This document shows, in pieces, positions 1-32,000 of a DNA stretch of 32,000 nucleotides. Both the position numbers and the translations under genes were made by a program. The notes under the pieces are model-generated. The model saw nothing but the letters and a program-made list of their open reading frames with translations, did no database searches and was not told where the DNA came from. The stretch spans positions 1-32,000 of the forward strand of contig NZ_FUWK01000008.1 in assembly GCF_900167395.1 (NCBI RefSeq), given 5' to 3'. Source of the DNA: Nitrosomonas europaea. GTDB lineage: Bacteria; Pseudomonadota; Gammaproteobacteria; Burkholderiales; Nitrosomonadaceae. How positions within the stretch are numbered: position 1 is the first letter of the stretch; the number at the start of each line of letters is the position of its first letter.

Positions 1-2
1 CA

Positions 3-182
3 TTCCGGCGCAAGATTTACCAGTCCATTGAAGAGTTACAACACGATCTGGATGATTGGATGGCGTACTACAACAGTGTGCGGACTCACCAGGGAAAAAT
101 GTGCTGTGGACGCACCCCGATGCAAACTTTAATTGACGCAAAGGAGATATGGGACGATAAAATTACCGAATTGAATAACTGA
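3..182 (+). CDS. C-terminal 59 codons of a DDE (rve / integrase-core) transposase. The 5' part lies outside the window.
   Basis: Frame 3 is open from the window edge. It reads FRRKIYQSIEELQHDLDDWMAYYNSVRTHQGKMCCGRTPMQTLIDAKEIWDDKITELNN followed by TGA at 180-182. The YN..R.HQG...TP tail is typical of rve-domain (IS481/IS3-type) transposases. Confidence 0.7.
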   Translation, partial: FRRKIYQSIEELQHDLDDWMAYYNSVRTHQGKMCCGRTPMQTLIDAKEIWDDKITELNN

Positions 183-183
183 A

Positions 184-229
184 TCTGATCTAACAGGCAC
201 TCGTCAAATCGGGTAACTGTCAGATCAGA
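184..229. repeat. Imperfect hairpin directly after the transposase stop codon.
   Basis: TCTGATCTAACAG (184-196) pairs with CTGTCAGATCAGA (217-229). That is 12 of 13 positions complementary, with a 20-nt loop. Confidence 0.6.
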
Positions 230-273
230 TCTCAACTACTACAATTTATTACTGACTTTATTATCCGGCTACA

Positions 274-425
274 TGTGTAATAACCTGCATTCAGCAAGAT
301 TTTGAGCCAGCAATAACTACATCTATCCACCCCTGCAAACCAGCATTAACTGCAAATGAACCTGCACTTATTCCTATCGACCTGCATTTGATCTTCACAA
401 ACCGACAATAACTGCGACTGACAAA
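274..425 (+). repeat. Array of five phased, degenerate direct repeats with a period of about 32 bp and core AATAAC-(C)TGCA. It resembles an iteron array or a set of transposase-binding sites.
   Basis: Cores are at 279-284 AATAAC, 312-317 AATAAC, 345-350 ATTAAC, 376-381 ATCGAC and 407-412 AATAAC. Spacings are 33, 33, 31 and 31 bp. Each core is followed by CTGCATT, TACATCT, TGCAAAT, CTGCATT or TGCGACT. The array begins with TGTGTAATAACCTGCATT. Confidence 0.6.
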
Positions 426-454
426 ACATTCATTACCTACCTATATAATTAACA

Positions 455-580
455 GAATGTCATTCTGTGCTATACCCTAACCTGATGTCAGGATACGTCA
501 CGCATAAGCGTCAGAATAGGGTTTGCATGGCAATTAATTGACATTTCTAATCAAAAGTAATAGATTTCACTCTGACACAT
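455..580 (+). promoter_or_regulatory. Tn21/Tn1721-type res (resolution) site upstream of tnpR.
   Basis: Resolvase half-site-like motifs: TGTCA at 458-462 and 486-490, CGTCA at 496-500 and 509-513, TGACA at 539-543 and 573-577. The strings TACCCTAACCTGATGTCAG, GCGTCAGAATAGG and TTAATTGACAT closely match my recollection of Tn21/Tn1721 res. The position immediately 5' of tnpR is canonical. Confidence 0.65.
538..566 (+). promoter_or_regulatory. Putative tnpR promoter embedded in the tnpR-proximal res subsite.
   Basis: TTGACA (538-543), a 17-nt spacer, then TAGATT (561-566). GGAG at 590-593 lies 5 nt before the TTG start at 599. Confidence 0.45.
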
Positions 581-598
581 ATTACTTTTGGAGTTAAC

Positions 599-1159
599 TT
601 GCCAGGTAAGCGCATTGGTTATGTTCGGGTCAGCAGCTTTGACCAAAATCCTGAACGGCAACTGGAAGGCATTCAGGTTGATCGCGTGTTCACTGATAAG
701 GCATCGGGTAAAGATATCCAGCGACCACAACTCGATATGTTGCTGGATTTTGTGCGTGAGGACGATACAGTCGTCGTCCATAGTATGGATCGCCTGGCAC
801 GCAACCTAGATGACCTGCGTCGTCTGGTACAAGATCTTACCGGTCGTGGTATCCGAGTCGAATTTGTCAAAGAAGGATTAATTTTTACCGGTGAAGATTC
901 TCCGATGGCCAACCTGATGCTGTCGGTCATGGGATCTTTTGCGGAGTTTGAGCGTGCTCTGATCCGCGAACGGCAGCGCGAAGGTATTACACTTGCCAAA
1001 CAGCGAGGTGCCTATAGGGGTCGCAAGAAATCGCTGAACAGCGAACAGGTTGCGGAATTAAAGCGAAGGGTCGTAGCAGGCGAACAAAAAGCGCTCATCG
1101 CCCGCAGCTTTGGTATCAGCCGCGAAACGCTTTACCAATATCTGAAAACAGTAGATTGA
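599..1159 (+). CDS. tnpR: Serine recombinase of the Tn3-family resolvase type (Tn21 subgroup-like TnpR), 186 aa, with a TTG start.
   Basis: The translation PGKRIGYVRVSSFDQNPERQLEG...VVVHSMDRLARNLDDLRRLV...SPMANLMLSVMGSFAEFERALIRERQREGI...GRKKSL...FGISRETLYQYL shows the catalytic Ser motif (YVRVSS), the resolvase core and a C-terminal HTH. No tnpA follows, so the gene is an orphan. Confidence 0.9.
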   Translation: MPGKRIGYVRVSSFDQNPERQLEGIQVDRVFTDKASGKDIQRPQLDMLLDFVREDDTVVVHSMDRLARNLDDLRRLVQDLTGRGIRVEFVKEGLIFTGEDSPMANLMLSVMGSFAEFERALIRERQREGITLAKQRGAYRGRKKSLNSEQVAELKRRVVAGEQKALIARSFGISRETLYQYLKTVD

Positions 1160-1197
1160 AAAGCCACGCCATATTGATTGTGCGTCTGAATCTCGTT

Positions 1198-1236
1198 GAA
1201 TGCAGGTCGGATCATTTATAAATGCAGGTTGTTACA
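1198..1236 (+). repeat. Two adjacent copies (22-bp spacing) of the AATGCAGGT site, in the opposite orientation to the 274-425 array. The outer copy forms a 16-bp inverted repeat with 276-291.
   Basis: GAATGCAGGTCGG at 1198-1210 and AAATGCAGGTTGTTACA at 1220-1236. The reverse complement of 276-291 (TGTAATAACCTGCATT) is AATGCAGGTTATTACA, which matches 1221-1236 at 15 of 16 positions. Confidence 0.65.
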
Positions 1237-1333
1237 GGTATGAATCGAGAGATTCACGTACCGTTGCGTGAGAGCCCGAGGATGAAATTCCCTTGGGCTA
1301 CTCGACCAATTATAACTTTATCTGCCACCGGTT

Positions 1334-1993
1334 TTATTTATTTGAAATTATTCCTCTGGCTTTGAGTGAAACTAAAGCCTTTTTAAGTTCTTTCTCGGTT
1401 AACTTGCCATTCAATTCATTGTTTAAGTCATCAATGTTCGGCCATGCATGTCCATATGCGTTGAGGAAATCCTCTTTTTCGTAAGCTCTATAGTCCACAA
1501 TGATTGGCCTTCTCTCCAAAATATATATGGTCTCAAACACCATTTTTTCATCAGGATCTTCTATTCTTTCATATGCTAATACTATTGATTTTATAAATTC
1601 CCACCCTGCGATGCCGGGCGCAATCCACGCCAAGGGTCCTGTAATAGGTGTTAAAGCATAACCTGCGGCGACAATTCCTAGAAATTTAAGTAGGCCGTCT
1701 TTGGAGGCTTTACCAAGTTTATATACACAAAATTGGCGCAGTCGAAAAGCAAGTAGATAATCTTCTCTTGGTTGGGTTATGTAATTTGTTTGAAAAACTC
1801 CTGCTAATGCGCGATGAGTTTCGTTTTCTATTTTGTAATTGCTGCTTAATTCTTTTATAAGATCTAATTCCAACATTACTTTTGACTGCAATGGAATTAT
1901 TTCTGTGAATGAAGACAATGCCGATGGTATGTCAGTATTAAACACCCATTCTTCTGAATTAACGAGGGCATAGGCTTGCATAGTAGAAATCAT
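1334..1993 (-). CDS. Hypothetical protein, 219 aa, AT-rich orphan with a central hydrophobic hairpin (two probable TM helices).
   Basis: It is the only long ORF in a visibly AT-rich block. The hydrophobic stretch is LLKFLGIVAAGYALTPITGPLAWIAPGIAGWEFIKSIVLAY. I recognise no family motif. No clear Shine-Dalgarno precedes the ATG at 1993. Confidence 0.6.
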   Translation of the reverse strand: MISTMQAYALVNSEEWVFNTDIPSALSSFTEIIPLQSKVMLELDLIKELSSNYKIENETHRALAGVFQTNYITQPREDYLLAFRLRQFCVYKLGKASKDGLLKFLGIVAAGYALTPITGPLAWIAPGIAGWEFIKSIVLAYERIEDPDEKMVFETIYILERRPIIVDYRAYEKEDFLNAYGHAWPNIDDLNNELNGKLTEKELKKALVSLKARGIISNK

Positions 1994-2005
1994 TTTTTTG
2001 TTAAC

Positions 2006-2030
2006 TGTCTTTTTCAGAATAGGATTGCAC
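2006..2030 (+). repeat. Tn402-family-like 25-bp terminal inverted repeat (IRi-like, degenerate).
   Basis: TGTCTTTTTCAGAATAGGATTGCAC matches the remembered IRi TGTCGTTTTCAGAAGACGGCTGCAC at 20 of 25 positions. Confidence 0.65.
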
Positions 2031-2073
2031 TAGGGTCTGTTGACATTTCGCTCTAAGTTCTTGCACTAGAAAA

Positions 2074-2121
2074 GAAAACTCGTATTGTAAAAGCTCTCAC
2101 ACCGTCACGATACGAGTTTTC
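2074..2121. repeat. Perfect 12-bp inverted repeat (hairpin) ending 1 nt before the IS5-like ATG.
   Basis: GAAAACTCGTAT (2074-2085) and ATACGAGTTTTC (2110-2121) with a 24-nt loop. Confidence 0.7.
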
Positions 2122-2122
2122 A

Positions 2123-2389
2123 ATGCCCCGTTAACTGCTCAGCGACGAGCATTGGTCGAAGCTGCGTAAGATTTTGCGGCAGATGGCCATCTATGACAAG
2201 CCCGATCTACGTCTGACCGTCGAGGGTATGCTCTACCGTATGCGGGTAGGCTGTCCCTGGCGAGACCTGCCCGAGGCATTCGGCTACTGGAACAGCATCT
2301 ACAAACGCTTCAATGCCTGGTCTGCTGCAGGCAAGTGGGTCAACCTGTTCAAGGCGCTGGTGGTTGAACCTGAAATGCAGGTCGCATAG
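2123..2389 (+). pseudogene. IS5-family (DUF4096-type N-terminal domain) transposase remnant. It has a premature stop at codon 4 and lacks the C-terminal DDE domain.
   Basis: It reads MPR*LLSDEHWSKLRKILRQMAIYDKPDLRLTVEGMLYRMRVGCPWRDLPEAFGYWNSIYKRFNAWSAAGKWVNLFKALVVEPEM..., with TAA at 2132-2134. Family-like sequence stops near 2375, where an AATGCAGGTCG repeat begins. Confidence 0.8.
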
Positions 2390-2411
2390 GCATAATTGCG
2401 ACTGACTGAAG
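2373..2411 (+). repeat. A further copy of the AATGCAGGT / AATAACTGCGACTGAC repeat family, located at the truncation point of the IS5-like ORF.
   Basis: AAATGCAGGTCG (2373-2384) equals the reverse complement of 378-389. CATAATTGCGACTGAC (2391-2406) resembles CAATAACTGCGACTGAC (406-422). Confidence 0.6.
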
Positions 2412-2499
2412 ATTATTTACAGACGCATAAACTAAACTGAATATCATATTCTGAGGCCACCTATACAGCCAATTGAGTGCTATCAAGTTCTGATATTTG

Positions 2500-2524
2500 G
2501 TGCAGTCGTCTTCTGAAAATGACA
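2500..2524 (-). repeat. Tn402/Tn5053-family 25-bp terminal inverted repeat (IRt-type), with its outer end at 2524.
   Basis: The plus strand reads GTGCAGTCGTCTTCTGAAAATGACA. Its complement TGTCATTTTCAGAAGACGACTGCAC is, as far as I recall, identical to the IRt of Tn402 / class 1 integrons. Confidence 0.75.
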
Positions 2525-2924
2525 ATATCTAGCGGGAAGATCATGTCGAGATGGCGCATATTCCCGCTATTGATATTACCCGGTACACCGTCGATCAACA
2601 GCTTGATGCCGTTGATGTAGCCTTCGCCGTTGAAGGCGCGGAAGGAGGGCTTGCCGGATTCGGCGCCGAGACGGAATTCGGTCGACTGTATGCCGGGCAT
2701 CTGGCCGATCAATTCCCAGCTGTTCATCACGTTTTTGTCCTGCACACGCTCGGCACCCATTACGTCGACCGAAGTCAGGATGCTGCGTGTTGGCAAGGAG
2801 CCGGTGTTGCCGGAATTGACCGTCACTTCCCCCAGTACGACCATTGACTCCTGTGCCTGAGCGCTGGACAGCGCCAGGGCAATCAGCCAGACGAGCCGGC
2901 TGGGTTTGAATCCGGATTTTTCAT
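2525..2924 (-). pseudogene. 5' fragment of a second TonB-dependent receptor gene (signal peptide plus part of the plug domain). It is truncated by the Tn402-type end and frameshifted in an A-run near the start.
   Basis: The translation ...SGFKPSRLVWLIALALSSAQAQESMVVLGEVTVNSGNTGSLPTRSILTSVDVMGAERVQDKNVMNSWELIGQMPGIQS...FRAFNGEGYINGIKLLIDGVP...LDMIFPLD is plug-domain-like. It loses similarity at 2524/2525. The ATG at 2924-2922 is one nucleotide out of frame with the body; the A5 run is at 2917-2921 (T5 on the plus strand). Confidence 0.75.
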
Positions 2925-2995
2925 TGAGCCAGCCGATGCGCCATACGTGTGCTGGACTTCTGTCGCCAGTCGAAATATCGTGTGCCGATCTGATT

Positions 2996-3328
2996 TCACT
3001 GCTCCTGTTCTGGTACGTAGATCATCGAACCATCCTTGAGGCGAAAAGCTGTTCCGGCTTTGGTGCCTTCTCCTTCTCCGATCTGTCCCGTGGATTTGTA
3101 ATGTTTCAGTTCCTCACCTTGTTTAATGATCATTTCCATGGATGGTTTGCCGGGATCCTTGATGATCACCGCGTCCTGCAGCGTGAACGGATTGAGCGGG
3201 TTTTCCATCACTGCGATCAGCAATACGGCGATGATCACGAGAAAGACATCGATGATATTGACGACACTGAGGATCGGATCATCTCCATCTTCATCTTCCA
3301 GGATTGAAAGCGATCTGCGCTCAGCCAT
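2996..3328 (-). CDS. ExbD/TolR-topology single-pass membrane protein (DUF2149-like), 110 aa.
   Basis: MAERRSLSILEDEDGDDPILSVVNIIDVFLVIIAVLLIAVMENP... consists of an acidic N-terminus, one TM helix and a soluble C-terminal domain, as in ExbD. Its ATG (3328-3326) overlaps the upstream stop within ATGGCTGA, which suggests translational coupling. An alternative ATG is at 3340. Confidence 0.7.
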   Translation of the reverse strand: MAERRSLSILEDEDGDDPILSVVNIIDVFLVIIAVLLIAVMENPLNPFTLQDAVIIKDPGKPSMEMIIKQGEELKHYKSTGQIGEGEGTKAGTAFRLKDGSMIYVPEQEQ

Positions 3329-3866: not shown

Positions 3867-6800
3867 TTAAGAAAGTTTCAAGCCGGAGAATGCCTGCCGT
3901 TCCCGGTAGGTGCGCCAGGACTGGTAGACAGCGCCTGCAGCGATGATGCCGATGAGCAGCCAGGCATAATTCCACAGGATTTCTTCGATCATTGGCTGAA
4001 CAGGGGTCTCGACCATTTGCTGGCCGCGTACGATGTCCGCAGTCTGTTGTGGTTCAGGTTGTGGATTGGCTTGGCTTTCAACAGGGGTATCGGGGGTATT
4101 CAGACCATAGCCGGCTGCCAGTTCAGCGACATATGCTTTGAAAGTGGCGTTGTCGGTCTGGATATCATGGCGATTTGCGATGTCGGTATAGACCTCGACC
4201 AGTTCGCGTCTGGTCTGTTCGCTTGCTTCCCAGTAATCCTTGCGGATAGCTTCCAGCATGCGTTCAGCGATCTGGGCCAGCGCGGCAGGATTCGATTTCT
4301 CGAACCAGTCACGCATGTCGAGGTTATAACGGTCGGCAATATAGCTCTGGTGAAATTCCTCCCATTGATCATCCCGGGTGATATTACGATCCATGACCTG
4401 CCATCCCCAGAAGTTGTTGATCGTATCGAGCATCTGCAATGTTCCGGAATAGCCTTCTTTCTGCATTTCCCTGATCCAGTTCGGGTGCTGGTAAACCGCA
4501 CGCAATTCCCTGGCCATGAATTTTTCTGCCGACTCAAGCCTGGCGCGTGCCGGATCGCGCAGATTGGAAATATAGAGTTGCGGGCTCGTCCCATCCAGAT
4601 GCCGTACTGCCATCGATATTCCTCCCAGATATTCGAATGGATGATCCGTATCGAGCAGGCCGCGCAGGTTGGATGAACGTGAAAACACTGCAGCACTCGT
4701 GCCGCGCAGATGTTCCGCGTAGGCGTTTATTTCGTTTCCTTTGCCATCGGTAAGTTTCTGGCTCCAGTGTGCCGGGTTCGGCCCGTAAGCCCAGGACATG
4801 CGTGACAGATAGAGGTTCTCGAGCTTGCCGTCCTTCTCGTCCCATTTATCCGAAGCCAGAGTGGCTTGGGTCAGGCGTGTGCTGTAGTCACCACTTTCAT
4901 TGCCAAAAATACGTGTCAAGGCAAATTCCCTGGCCGTTTCAGGTGTTACTCCCAGCTTCTTCAGTTGTGCCCGGATACGCCGGGTATTGGCACGTATGGG
5001 GTTGTCACTGTCGGGTTCGTCCTGTTCAGCCAATAGTGTGATTGCCTGGTTGAATCGTTCCATTACATTTGGAAACTGGTCACGATACAGTCCGGTCAGT
5101 GAAATGACCGTATCGATACGGGGACGCCCCAGCTCGCTCAGGGGAATGACTTCCATACCGGTTACCCGCCCGCCCTCATCCCATACAGGTCGCACACCCA
5201 TGGCATAGAATATCTGTGCCTCGAGCATGCCGAGATGGCGCATGGTTTCAGTGCTCCACATCGAGAAGGCGAGTTTTTCCGGAAATTTGTCGTGCGTGAG
5301 TTTGTAGCTGGCAATCAATTGTTCGACTGCCTGCCCGCCCGCTTCATAAGCCGCACGAGTGGGGACTCTTCCAGGGTCGAATCCGTACATGTTGCGGCCG
5401 GTCGGCAGTGCATCCGGGTTGCGGATCGGGTCTCCACCATACGAAGGATCGATCCAGCGCGATGATAATCCTTTTACGATTGAATCGATTTCCGGGGCTG
5501 CGTGCAGATTCATGCGAAATGTGCGGCCGCGTTCAGCCATCGCTCGCAATCCGGGATCGTTGATATCGTTCAGTGGCTGATCGGAGAAGACATACGTCTC
5601 AACGAAACGATAGGGTTCGGATTGCTGAATTTTGCGGTAATCTTCGCGCAGCAGAGTGCGGGCATCTTCGATACCCAGCAGATCGTAGAGGGGTTGCCCG
5701 AGCATCTGCATGACGTTGCTGATCTGATGAGCCTGTTCCGCATCGCGTCCGAGAGTATGCAAACCCAGTGGCTGCTGGGCTGTCCCGAGATCTTCGAGAT
5801 AATCTTCGATGTCCCGCAAAAAATTGTCGAAATTTCGTTCCAGATCAGCGACTTTCCATTGCATATCCTGATGGATATTCATTCTGACTGCCTGCTCGAT
5901 GATCAGCTTGCGGTTATTGTCGCGCACCAGGCCTTGATCCAGTGACTGGTATTCCCGGATCAGGTCATTGAGCCGGACGAAATCATCGGAGAGACCAGCC
6001 GGAGAAAAGGCAGGCGTCTGATGGCTGATGATGACCCCGCGTCCCCGGCGTTTGACGTGAATGGCCTCGCCGATGTTATCCACGATATAGGGATAGATCA
6101 CCGGCAGGTTGCCAACCAGAATGTTGGGATAGTCATACGCCCACAGACCGCGCTCTTTCCCCGGTGTCCATTCCTGGGTACCGTGTGTGCCAAAATGTAC
6201 GATGGCATCGGCGCTGAATTGTTCGCGTATCCATAAATAGCTGGCGAGATAGGCGTGCCCGGGAGGTTGCCGGGTATCGTGGAACAGTTTCTTTTCTTCT
6301 TCCATACCCGCCATTTCGCCGCGTGAAGGCTGCGGCATCACGACCAGATTGCCCAGTTGCATACGCGGAATCACGAATCCATTTACGCTATCCTTGTGCG
6401 CAAGCCACACGCTTTCTTCCGGATTTCCCCAGCGAGCTTCGATGTCATTTCGCACCGATTCCGGCAAGGTTGCATACCACGCGCGATAGCGGGCAAGCGG
6501 GAGGAAATCCCAATGCGGGGTGCGCATCAGTTCCGGAATACCGCCAGCACGATAGGCTGGTCGCAGCATCTGTCCGACCGTATCGATCATTTGTTGTTCG
6601 GTTACGGCTTCAAAGGCATAGCCTTCCGAACGCAGATGTTCTACCAGATATTCAAGTGACCTGGGTACGTTCAGATTGGAGGCTCCCTGGTTTTTCTCAC
6701 CAGGGGGATGATTCCAGAACAGCAAAGCGACACGTTTATCGGCATTGGCCCTGAGGCTGAGACGTGCCAGATTGATAGCTTTGCCGACCAATAGATCCAG

Positions 6801-31464: not shown

Positions 31465-32000
31465 TCAGATCAATTTGACGAATACCTTGGAACGCCGCTG
31501 GTAGTTGTAAAAATTCTGTTTCAGTCGAGGAAGCTGGTCAGGGGTGGTTTCCGAAAAGCCGCGTTCTACGAACCAGTGAGTGGTACGGGTGGTAAGTGCG
31601 AACAGGCGGCGGTAACCTTGTTCCCTGGCCTGATCTTCAAGATGATCGATCAGTATCCGGCCGATACCTGCCTTGCGATATTCGGGGTGTACTGCGAGGC
31701 AGGCCAGTTCGCATGCTTTGTCATCCGGGAAAGGGTAGAGTGCCGCACAAGCGATGATCATGTTGTCGTGTTCGATCACTGTGAAGCGCTCAATTTCCAT
31801 TTCCAGCAATTCCCGGTTGCGCCGTACCAGGATACCTGCATTCTCTAATGGTTCGATCAATTGGAGAATAGCACCGATGTCTTCGATTTCAGCTTGGCGG
31901 ATGATTTGCAACGGGTCACGTGTGATCATGCTGCCAATACCGCTATGAGTGAACAGTTCGAGCAGCAGTGCGCCATCGATATGGCGGCTGACGAGATGAA
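31465..32000 (-). CDS. argA: Amino-acid N-acetyltransferase (N-acetylglutamate synthase), 3' part. The 5' part lies outside the window.
   Basis: The frame is open to the window edge. The sequence ...HLVSRHIDGALLLELFTHSGIGSMITRD... continues into a GNAT domain (ACELACLAVHPEYRKAGIGRILIDHLE) and the ArgA-like tail FYNYQRRSKVFVKLI. Confidence 0.8.
   Translation of the reverse strand, partial: HLVSRHIDGALLLELFTHSGIGSMITRDPLQIIRQAEIEDIGAILQLIEPLENAGILVRRNRELLEMEIERFTVIEHDNMIIACAALYPFPDDKACELACLAVHPEYRKAGIGRILIDHLEDQAREQGYRRLFALTTRTTHWFVERGFSETTPDQLPRLKQNFYNYQRRSKVFVKLI

Follow-up and report, generated by a model that had tools for sequence, protein, structure and literature searches.

Recurrent 9-mer sites around a resolvase gene

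The 32,000-nucleotide stretch of Nitrosomonas europaea DNA analysed here (the window) carries near its start a serine resolvase gene surrounded by copies of the 9-mer AATGCAGGT in both orientations, which raises the question of what these sites are and what kind of element they delimit. All five copies that the initial annotation placed within 276–2411 were found again, two on the minus strand (283–291 and 380–388) and three on the plus strand (1199–1207, 1221–1229 and 2374–2382). The accompanying statement that the window holds no further exact copy was wrong, as a sixth is located at 31834–31842 on the minus strand. The total of six compares with 0.31 ± 0.53 expected copies, and none of 100 shuffles reached this number. 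Because the sixth copy lies inside a 154-aa ORF (31465–31929, minus strand) and no repeat-like sequence is visible around it, it is probably a chance match outside the repeat family. A single chance match is compatible with the expected 0.31.

The imperfect inverted repeat described earlier (15/16 positions, 276–291 against 1221–1236) is real (16 nt, 94% complementary), and a second inverted pairing joins 283–301 to 1189–1207 (19 nt, 89%). The segment that these repeats enclose, 276–1236, is indeed 961 bp long and contains only repeats, a res region and a 186-aa resolvase ORF (599–1159), with the two right-hand sites (cores 1199–1207 and 1221–1229) spaced 22 bp apart, as had been reported.

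A transposon family with seven-site ends

The 9-mer AATGCAGGT is the reverse complement of a core, (G/A)ACC(T/A)GnATT, that occurs as seven direct copies about 21 bp (approximately two helical turns) apart in a terminal inverted repeat of about 169 bp. In a consensus of 60 unique repeats, the cores are found at positions 7, 29, 52, 85, 106, 126 and 147, and the conserved stretch extends to about 169. We consider it highly probable that the sites in the window are core repeats of such ends, which belong to a transposon family of presumably replicative type, and that the segment 276–1236 is a decayed non-autonomous derivative of this family.

The TGT...ACA tips anticipated in the initial annotation are conserved, with the tip motif located in 75 of 83 end instances. 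The 71 distinct flanks of these ends conform to an nnTAnn pattern, in which T occupies position −4 in 70 of 71 ends and A position −3 in 68 of 71, with further preferences for C at −5 and G at −2. Complete members display 6-bp target duplications centred on TA. The Massilia element (locus L012, 9972–19205) is flanked by a perfect duplication, CGTACT, and the autonomous Pseudomonas fragariae element (L078, 1903–6846) by another, GATAGC. The 5-bp duplications that had been expected of these ends did not materialise: three complete relatives have 6 bp with a central TA. The same seven-site repeat of about 169 bp is present at both ends of complete elements (the 174-bp arms of the Massilia element are 91% complementary).

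Full-length relatives with a DDE transposase exist, and the linkage of their genes can be read directly from the loci. In autonomous members the genes are arranged as a serine resolvase, with res between its gene and the repeat, then a 552-aa DDE transposase and then an ExeA-like AAA ATPase of about 323 aa (AAA_22); in L078 the full order is repeat–res–resolvase–DDE–ATPase. The three-gene module adjoins the repeat in L008, L012, L039, L042, L055, L077, L078 and L083, and at least 776 plasmid records contain it, Salmonella virulence plasmids among them. Homologous repeat arrays were found at 72 loci in species-representative genomes of Beta- and Gammaproteobacteria and on 136 plasmids, with 97 of the plasmid matches in Pseudomonas. 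MITEPsy2 of Pseudomonas syringae was considered as a relative for these 97 matches and proved unrelated, as its ends are of the Tn3 type (GGGG...); ISPa40 is a Tn3-family element and likewise irrelevant. Family cargo comprises toxin-antitoxin, STAND-NTPase and metal-related genes on plasmids from bacteria of plant, clinical and environmental origin.

The two ends of the segment 276–1236

The left terminal repeat (276–422, plus strand) retains six of the seven family cores: AACCTGCATT at 282–291, in which sites 1 and 2 are fused by the loss of 22 bp, followed by AGCCAGCAAT (305–314), AACCAGCATT (338–347), AACCTGCACT (359–368), GACCTGCATT (379–388) and AACCGACAAT (400–409). Over 153 nt it shares 84% identity with the ATPase-side repeat of a transposon on a Nitrosomonas stercoris plasmid, and its identity to the Massilia element is 76%. 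The distance from the tip to the site pattern is 75 at this end, versus 97 in 63 of 83 end instances. The outward tip is the TGT at 276–278, relative to which the TA of the flank is found at −6/−5, versus −4/−3 in other ends; a tip at 274 (TGTGTAAT) would therefore fit. Two unrelated members, L010 and L058, have a 22-bp-short tip as well, and the shortfall may therefore be a tolerated variant and not damage.

The right repeat (1186–1236, minus strand) is a two-site tip that matches positions 1–38 of the family consensus and ends in ACA at 1234–1236. Reading inward from the tip, the first 16 nt are TGTAACAACCTGCATT, a sequence that the N. stercoris plasmid tip shares without mismatch, and a compact N. 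eutropha end (L038, 4770–4809) matches the repeat at 97.5% identity over 40 nt. Homology to full repeats stops near 1186, so that about 50 bp and two of the seven sites are kept. The architecture of asymmetric left and right ends proposed earlier does not extend to complete members, which are symmetric; the asymmetry in the window arises because the right end is truncated and 22 bp are lost at the left tip.

The view that the segment is a non-autonomous element or the remains of a larger one gains from two fuller versions of the same arrangement. A 4.0-kb version (L089) shares orf518 and the left repeat, encodes a TnpR that is 93.5% identical, and carries cargo and a complete right repeat. A 1.87-kb version (L069) combines a 95% identical TnpR with a toxin-antitoxin-like pair and, again, a complete right repeat. 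Both loci are other Nitrosomonas-type DNA. A tblastn search with the Massilia proteins detected no homologue of the DDE transposase or the ATPase in the 32-kb window, and the segment is therefore non-autonomous at best.

The strongest competitor to decay is that the 961-bp unit is a functional mini-transposon, which the family transposase would move in trans and which would carry the resolvase and res between replicons. The TGT and ACA of the outward tips are intact, a short tip of the one-site form is seen again in other lineages, and the genus includes autonomous relatives, which reside on plasmids of N. stercoris and N. eutropha. Furthermore, mini-elements that lack a transposase have moved elsewhere: a 1.1-kb element (L063, 2769–3887) is flanked by a perfect 6-bp duplication, GGTATG, and a 350-bp miniature element in the same island as the segment, 1.85 kb upstream of it (L001, 7474–7823), has flanks GCTATC/CCTATC that agree at 5/6 positions. 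Each flank of the segment taken singly fits nnTAnn, but the two flanks do not match each other. The earlier observation that 276 and 1236 share no target duplication was borne out: the flanks, TACATG on the left (GCTACA with the tip at 274) and GGTATG on the right, are identical at 3/6 positions. Pairing the 276 end with other right ends yielded no target duplication anywhere in the island, except in the separate 350-bp miniature element. Considering also (i) the two of seven sites kept at the right end, (ii) the absence of a transposase from the window, and (iii) the occurrence of the exact resolvase protein in one genomic context only among the contigs read, we regard a functional mini-transposon as improbable. 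The segment shows no sign of having moved as a unit, contrary to what had been suggested, and, because its two ends have different target-like flanks, it is not a simple insertion. Decay of a larger element remains our preferred reading.

A resolvase module of the Tn21 lineage

The left repeat is followed by a linker and a res region of the Tn21/Tn501 subgroup type (423–598, plus strand), which includes the palindrome ACAGAATGTCATTCTGT at 449–465 and inverted repeats at 527–544 and 552–569/573–590. The tnpR gene that follows (599–1159, plus strand) encodes a serine resolvase of the Tn21-subgroup type (Pfam Resolvase, E = 2e-36, and HTH_7) and is about 75% identical at the nucleotide level to a tnpR that adjoins a Tn3-family tnpA. 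By blastn, window positions 457–1144 are 74–75% identical to res-tnpR of mer-res-tnpR-tnpA transposons. Elements of the Tn21/Tn501 subgroup of the Tn3 family, the proposed source type of the module, share its order of res and then tnpR at this level of identity. They also carry a Tn3-family tnpA of about 990 aa after tnpR, which the window does not. No long ORF follows 1159: the right repeat comes next, then an intron remnant and a 219-aa ORF, which is unrelated. No 38-bp GGGG-type repeat was noticed in passing in 1–3000. Unlike in Tn21/Tn501 elements, res-tnpR here is bracketed by the repeats of an IS481-related family.

The placement of res and a resolvase gene directly inside one repeat is as in L078 and N. 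eutropha p2, but with a resolvase of the Tn21 lineage, and the window TnpR is only 36–41% identical in amino acid sequence to the resolvases of autonomous family members. The linker and res also follow the repeat in L069 (90% identity over 192 nt) and L089. No autonomous family member with a Tn21-type resolvase was found. In a metagenome scan, L089 was the only contig with the repeat-linker-res junction, and again no autonomous element with such a resolvase emerged. Because of its Tn21-type lineage and the lack of such a member among the sequences found, res-tnpR may have been captured as cargo and not be native to the repeat family.

The IS5 junction and a second repeat fragment

The fifth copy of the 9-mer (2374–2382, plus strand) is a hybrid at the truncation point of an IS5 element. 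Its AATGCAG part is IS5 coding sequence, because homology to an intact ISPa67-like IS5 runs through 2380; it translates as E-M-Q versus D-M-E in this relative. The copy possibly represents a microhomology junction with a repeat site. The sequence GTCGCATAGG that follows it resembles the reverse complement of 373–382, in an alignment that does not rise above chance. The head-to-head pair of sites that had been described at 2373–2411 dissolves on closer reading: its inverted alignment, 2381–2399, scores 21, inside the shuffle range (maximum 28). The pair is a junction artefact next to a diverged direct copy. This copy, at 2392–2454 (plus strand), is a truncated second version of the stretch that runs from the innermost site through the linker into the res palindrome, with its counterpart at 408–468. 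The local alignment scores 38, compared to 18.2 ± 2.3 (maximum 28) for shuffles, none of 500 of which reached this value, and the direct repeat is 73% identical over 56 nt.

Relationship to IS481, Tn402 and Tn7

The best NCBIfam model for the family DDE transposase is IS481 (E = 4.5e-20; 72 bits versus a cut-off of 224), and the gene is an 'IS481 family transposase' in RefSeq. The only Pfam match is a weak one to rve (E = 9e-5). A sequence search of the PDB with the DDE protein returned only retroviral integrase cores with E > 0.03, and the ATPase matches were marginal and uninformative. IS481 elements and IS481-driven unit transposons such as TnRErm46/ISRe46 likewise have TGT-starting terminal repeats, and the 6-bp IS481 target duplication is of the NCTAGN type, compared to nnTAnn in the repeat family. 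Unlike IS481, the family always links an ExeA-like AAA ATPase and a resolvase with res to its transposase, which is about 200 aa longer than the IS481 type, and its seven-site repeats of about 169 bp compare to a 20-bp inverted repeat in TnRErm46 (PMC6794481). In annotations the resolvase-DDE-ATPase module is called ISAzs36-like, after the ISfinder entry that pipelines assign to it as best hit.

The initial annotation had compared the sites to TnsB/TniA/MuA-type ends, and the multiple direct sites, TGT tips and AAA ATPase partner do resemble those of Tn7, Mu and Tn402; genuine Tn402-type repeats are also found nearby. Both Tn7 and Mu have, inside each end, direct site arrays about 20–22 bp apart, and both have an ATPase partner. 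It is nevertheless very unlikely that the sites are the ends of a Tn7-like or Tn5053/Mu-like element, asymmetric by design as those of Tn7 and Mu are. The model that the transposase matches is IS481, not TnsB/TniA, and neither Pfam nor NCBIfam shows a Mu-transposase C-terminal domain in it. Complete members have symmetric ends and 6-bp, not 5-bp, duplications, and two of them, L012 and L078, encode neither TnsA nor TniQ. Next to the N. stercoris element a TnsA fragment is annotated, which sits outside the repeat of that element. In contrast to Tn7 and Mu, a resolvase is present in the family, and cointegrate resolution is therefore implied. A further parallel is to Tn402/Tn5053 (TniA-TniB-TniQ-TniR; 25-bp repeats with extra 19-bp TniA sites), which also unites a DDE transposase, an AAA ATPase and a resolvase with res, has several transposase-type repeats per end and TGT tips, and commonly gives rise to derivatives without transposition genes. 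The repeat family differs from it by another transposase clade, the lack of TniQ, the length of the duplication, the gene order resolvase-DDE-ATPase and an unrelated repeat sequence.

That the repeats are resolvase accessory sites, plasmid iterons or partition sites is scarcely credible, even though the largest array lies directly upstream of res and tnpR and many homologues are plasmid-borne, because the array also adjoins the ATPase gene with no res nearby, is paired with at least four unrelated resolvase lineages, bounds resolvase-less elements as inverted pairs (L063, L079), and ends in TGT at an nnTAnn flank with 6-bp duplications.

A Tn402-bounded island in a TonB-receptor gene

An exact Tn402 IRt (GTGCAGTCGTCTTCTGAAAATGACA) at 2500–2524 on the minus strand, identical at 25/25 positions to the reference sequence (PMC9952335) and followed by the 5-bp duplication ATATC at 2525–2529, forms the right boundary of an island. 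Its exact inverse is present in L001, the IS-free version of the island, at 5360–5384, with ATATC just before it. Without the 6567-bp insert and one of the two ATATC copies, the flanking sequences join into a 716-aa ORF for a TonB-dependent receptor. The whole region is thus within a 6.6-kb island in N. europaea that is bounded by Tn402 repeats and splits a TonB-receptor gene, and this true Tn402-type repeat pair is the outer shell of the island. As to tniA-tniB-tniQ-tniR, no rve or TniB-type product is called between the repeats in L001. A 374-aa ORF (L001, 5693–6817) has no PADLOC match and carries the Pfam domains HEPN_RES_NTD1 and RES, and PADLOC and Pfam matched no family to the 219-aa ORF (1334–1993), the 518-aa ORF or the 234-aa ORF of the family. 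Among the 72 repeat-family loci, seven have a Tn402-type repeat within 8 kb.

Proposed mechanism and implications

If other multi-site ends are a guide, the arrayed cores would serve as binding sites of the DDE transposase, which would build a transpososome and cut at the TG/CA tips, and the ExeA-like ATPase would help in target capture. Insertion duplicates 6 bp centred on TA, and the resolvase would resolve cointegrates at res. We infer that the likeliest history of the segment 276–1236 is derivation from a larger element, similar to the 4.0-kb version, by internal deletion and an end-adjacent rearrangement; 2392–2454 is a further fragment of such a repeat end.

As a broken remnant that lacks a transposase and retains only a resolvase gene, the segment is ordinary mobile-DNA debris. 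The family from which it derives is widespread, little studied and apparently uncharacterised: a literature search for its name or mechanism (IS481+ExeA, rlgA, y4lS, ISAzs36) returned only automatic annotations. A bolder proposal, which we put forward tentatively and with less than even confidence, is that the family constitutes a formally undescribed class of replicative transposons, defined by an enlarged IS481-type DDE transposase, an ExeA-like ATPase, a serine resolvase and Tn7/Mu-style seven-site ends of 169 bp, whose res-proximal ends are recurrent landing sites of the Tn402 'res hunter', and that the window records the interplay of both systems. If so, this class would spawn miniature and cargo-only derivatives and exchange resolvase modules, and a piece of transposon debris of plasmid origin would have been carried into a chromosomal gene by a pair of Tn402 repeats that lacks the tni genes.

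The odd repeat cluster is explained as nested mobile-element debris in N. europaea, and its family assignment is corrected from Tn7-like to IS481-related. Current annotation labels are limited to 'IS481 family transposase', 'ExeA family protein' and 'recombinase'. The 169-bp consensus repeat, the seven-site layout, the TGT tips and the 6-bp nnTAnn duplication provide a usable definition of the family, which lets its elements, their miniature derivatives and their boundaries be annotated, and the family offers a testable case of an IS481-type transposase with multi-site ends and an ATPase partner.

The repeats in the window belong to a family of transposon ends

The 9-mer AATGCAGGT is found six times in the window versus 0.31 copies expected. 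The five copies located by the initial annotation were all recovered, and a sixth, which it had not seen, is present at 31834–31842. This copy lies within an ORF, its surroundings contain no sequence resembling the transposon family described here, and it is best read as a chance occurrence. The pattern itself is real and non-random. Segments 276–291 and 1221–1236 form a 16-nt inverted repeat with 94% complementarity, and the 961 bp enclosed by the pair hold the repeats together with a res-like region and a resolvase of 186 aa. As noted previously, this pair has no target duplication, that is, no flanking direct repeat.

A blastn search with window 262–452 alone identified homologous arrays of ~140–150 nt in 136 plasmids of Pseudomonas, Klebsiella, Nitrosomonas, Massilia, Janthinobacterium, and other hosts, and a degenerate pattern derived from two conserved cores matched 72 loci in species-representative genomes. 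Full-length relatives that carry a transposase, which the initial annotation had proposed to look for, do exist. A 9.2-kb element of a Massilia putida plasmid (comparison locus L012, 9972–19205) is delimited by a 174-bp inverted repeat, the arms of which are 91% complementary; its tips are TGT...ACA, and its 6-bp duplication, CGTACT, is perfect. Beside one arm, a single operon contains genes for a resolvase (191 aa), a DDE protein (552 aa), and an AAA_22 ATPase (323 aa), along with an ORF of 234 aa. The compact autonomous element of Pseudomonas fragariae (L078 1903–6846, duplication GATAGC) has the order repeat-res-resolvase-DDE-ATPase-repeat, and the resolvase-DDE-ATPase module adjoins an array at eight independent loci. 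As homologous arrays bound complete elements with TGT...ACA tips and 6-bp duplications, the earlier reading of the window sites as transposon ends holds.

Family elements that are devoid of a transposase have clearly transposed as well: one of 1.1 kb (L063) is flanked by a perfect duplication, GGTATG, and a 350-bp miniature element is flanked by a near-perfect one of 6 bp (GCTATC/CCTATC). The latter was found in L001, a metagenome contig containing the same region as the window (L001 coordinate = window + 9402), at L001 7474–7823, outside the window and 1.85 kb upstream of window 276. Its left end is short, and its right array of ~150 nt is ~90% identical to window 276–380. Both repeats are also present in a toxin-antitoxin carrier of 1.2 kb (L079), the flanks of which do not match. 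The miniature element is located upstream of an uncharacterized 518-aa ORF, which is 75% identical to a protein of N. eutropha plasmid p2 that there adjoins the same kind of array.

Structure of the ends and target choice

Alignment of sixty unique full-length ends gave a 169-bp consensus, with conservation collapsing beyond position ~169. It contains seven direct cores, (G/A)ACC(T/A)GnATT, at positions 7, 29, 52, 85, 106, 126, and 147 (spacings of 22, 23, 33, 21, 20, and 21 bp), of which AATGCAGGT represents the reverse complement. A sister repeat type shares the overall layout, but its core is GCTCGCATT instead of ACCTGCATT and its tip is TGTAAT(A/G)GCTCGCG (L008 10300–10470, L085 6460–6612, and L069 1620–1710). 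This type is found on the resolvase side in the elements of N. stercoris and N. eutropha p2, the former of which carries one repeat of each type.

The sequence outside the TGT tip is strongly biased: among 71 distinct flanks, 70 have T at position −4 and 68 have A at −3, and there is a preference for C at −5 and for G at −2. Combined with the duplications of 6 bp, the bias amounts to target behavior of the NCTAGN type, as described for IS481-family elements (PMC6794481). Of the TGT termini and 5-bp duplications that had been anticipated, the termini were thus found, but the duplications are of 6 bp (CGTACT, GATAGC, GGTATG).

The transposase is related to IS481

The ends of the segment had been found reminiscent of TnsB/TniA/MuA-type (Tn7-like) transposons. 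No signal of a Mu-transposase C-terminal domain, TnsB, or TniA was detected in the family DDE protein in Pfam, NCBIfam, and PDB sequence searches. Its only family-level matches are a weak one to Pfam rve and one to NCBIfam IS481 (E 4.5e-20, 72 bits, under the 224-bit cut-off), and the accompanying ATPase is AAA_22/ExeA-like. Family transposases include WP_156895477.1 of Massilia and BBL36014.1 of the N. stercoris plasmid. Considering these matches and the 6-bp duplications, the family is IS481-related, and not Tn7/Tn5053-like.

The window unit is a damaged, non-autonomous member

The initial annotation likened the unequal ends of the 276–1236 segment to the asymmetric ends of Tn7-like elements. 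The left array (276–422) is a good copy, 84% identical to an N. stercoris plasmid end, which lacks 22 bp, so that terminal sites 1 and 2 are fused. The distance from tip to pattern is 75 here, whereas 63 of 83 end instances have 97; L010 and L058 also have the short form. Of the right copy, only ~50 bp are left, a two-site tip at 1186–1236 that is identical to the N. stercoris tip over 16 nt and shows 97.5% identity over 40 nt to a compact N. eutropha end. The asymmetry is therefore damage, not design. The flanks differ, GCTACA (or TACATG) on the left and GGTATG on the right, and each is singly target-site-like. For the left one to conform to the nnTAnn rule, the tip has to be placed at 274 (TGTGTAAT). 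Such differing flanks would be expected after rearrangements within one molecule next to the ends of a replicative element, which may be their origin.

Abutting the ACA tip of the right repeat, window 1233–1306 (+) matches group II intron domain V/VI (RF00029, full-length 1–77, 36.5 bits versus a gathering score of 40, E 7e-5). This segment, which has homologous sequence in N. eutropha (L038 2718–2790) and in the activated-sludge contig L089, looks like a 3′ intron remnant.

A third cluster of sites had been described as a head-to-head pair at 2373–2411. In an alignment with an intact ISPa67-like IS5, IS5 homology reaches window 2380, which makes AATGCAG of the 2374 copy IS5 coding sequence, and the supposed inverted site does not rise above chance. 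One of the five sites is thus a junction artifact. Window 2392–2454 is a significant, diverged direct copy of 408–468, a stretch that takes in the innermost core and the linker and reaches into the start of the res palindrome.

The placement of res directly inside the repeat is the normal layout of the family, the window included. The res-tnpR region (457–1144, with res at 457–598) displays 74–75% nucleotide identity to that of Tn21/Tn501-type mercury transposons, in which, however, a Tn3-family tnpA follows res-tnpR, whereas no tnpA follows tnpR in the window. Autonomous family members carry resolvases of at least three lineages, to which the window TnpR is only 36–41% identical.

Fuller versions of the unit were found at two loci. 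In L089, the 518-aa ORF and the left repeat are present in identical form, with a 93.5% identical TnpR and, after the cargo, a complete inverted right repeat, 4.0 kb in total. The cargo (reverse complement of 3975–6416) consists of a gene for a STAND/NACHT-like P-loop NTPase of 472 aa and an ORF of 250 aa, and may be a defense module. In N. eutropha Nm24 (L069), a 1.87-kb unit combines repeat-res-tnpR (95% identical) and a complete right repeat with a toxin-antitoxin-like pair. Flank comparison and homolog searches revealed neither a target duplication nor a transposase in either. The window unit, for which the initial annotation had suggested a non-autonomous element or the remains of a larger one, is thus a non-autonomous remnant, the most eroded member of a small non-autonomous lineage.

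The unit resides in a Tn402-bounded island

By its exact resolvase protein, the window is assigned to N. europaea ATCC 19718 (AL954747), with window position 1 at about 812,632 of that record. To view the uninterrupted surroundings, we used L001, which is free of the insertions of the IS481 and IS3 families ending at window 240. Window 1–240 corresponds to the 3′ end of an insertion sequence of the IS481 family and encodes the transposase C-terminus (ORF 3–182); its absence from L001 shows that it inserted recently, 35 bp to the left of the repeat tip. In ATCC 19718, an IS3-family copy is also present beside it.

A perfect (25/25) Tn402 IRt at window 2500–2524 has its exact inverse at L001 5360–5384, and both are flanked by the 5-bp duplication ATATC (window 2500–2529 and L001 5355–5384 with the duplication included). 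The island between them splits a TonB-dependent receptor gene into a Plug part (window 2530–2844, −) and a barrel (L001 3701–5359, −), and a 716-aa ORF is restored when the 6567-bp insert is excised in silico along with one ATATC. The family repeats of the window and res-tnpR are therefore inside a Tn402-bounded island, which is 6.6 kb in size and larger in ATCC 19718 owing to added IS copies. Gene calls contain no tni genes between the Tn402-type repeats. A 219-aa ORF (window 1334–1993, −) has no Pfam, NCBIfam, or PADLOC match, and the same island encodes a 374-aa, toxin-like protein with HEPN_RES_NTD1 and RES domains (L001 5693–6817, −).

Transposons of the Tn5053/Tn402 family target res sites. 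Tn402-type 25-bp repeats are present within 8 kb of family ends in 7 of the 72 loci (L017, L023, L038, L046, L058, L061, L073). Many of them lie immediately internal to the array, at the location of res, and those of L058 and L073 are right at its inner edge, where res would be expected. This suggests that the res sites of the family are targets of such 'res hunters'.

Distribution and annotation of the family

A tblastn search found the family DDE gene in 776 plasmid records, including Salmonella virulence plasmids, where its neighbors are annotated as rlgA/resolvase and an ExeA-like ATPase. Salmonella accounts for 392 matching plasmid records, with a DDE copy that is 70% identical (e.g. NC_006855.1 46274–47920 and LN794247.1 45724–47370). 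In RefSeq, the three genes are annotated as 'IS481 family transposase', 'ExeA family protein', and 'recombinase family protein'. In the literature searched, the module is mentioned solely via the automatic ISfinder label ISAzs36, and no description of the ends or mechanism of the family was found. The locus itself is ordinary mobile-DNA debris; the transposon family that it reveals is under-described.
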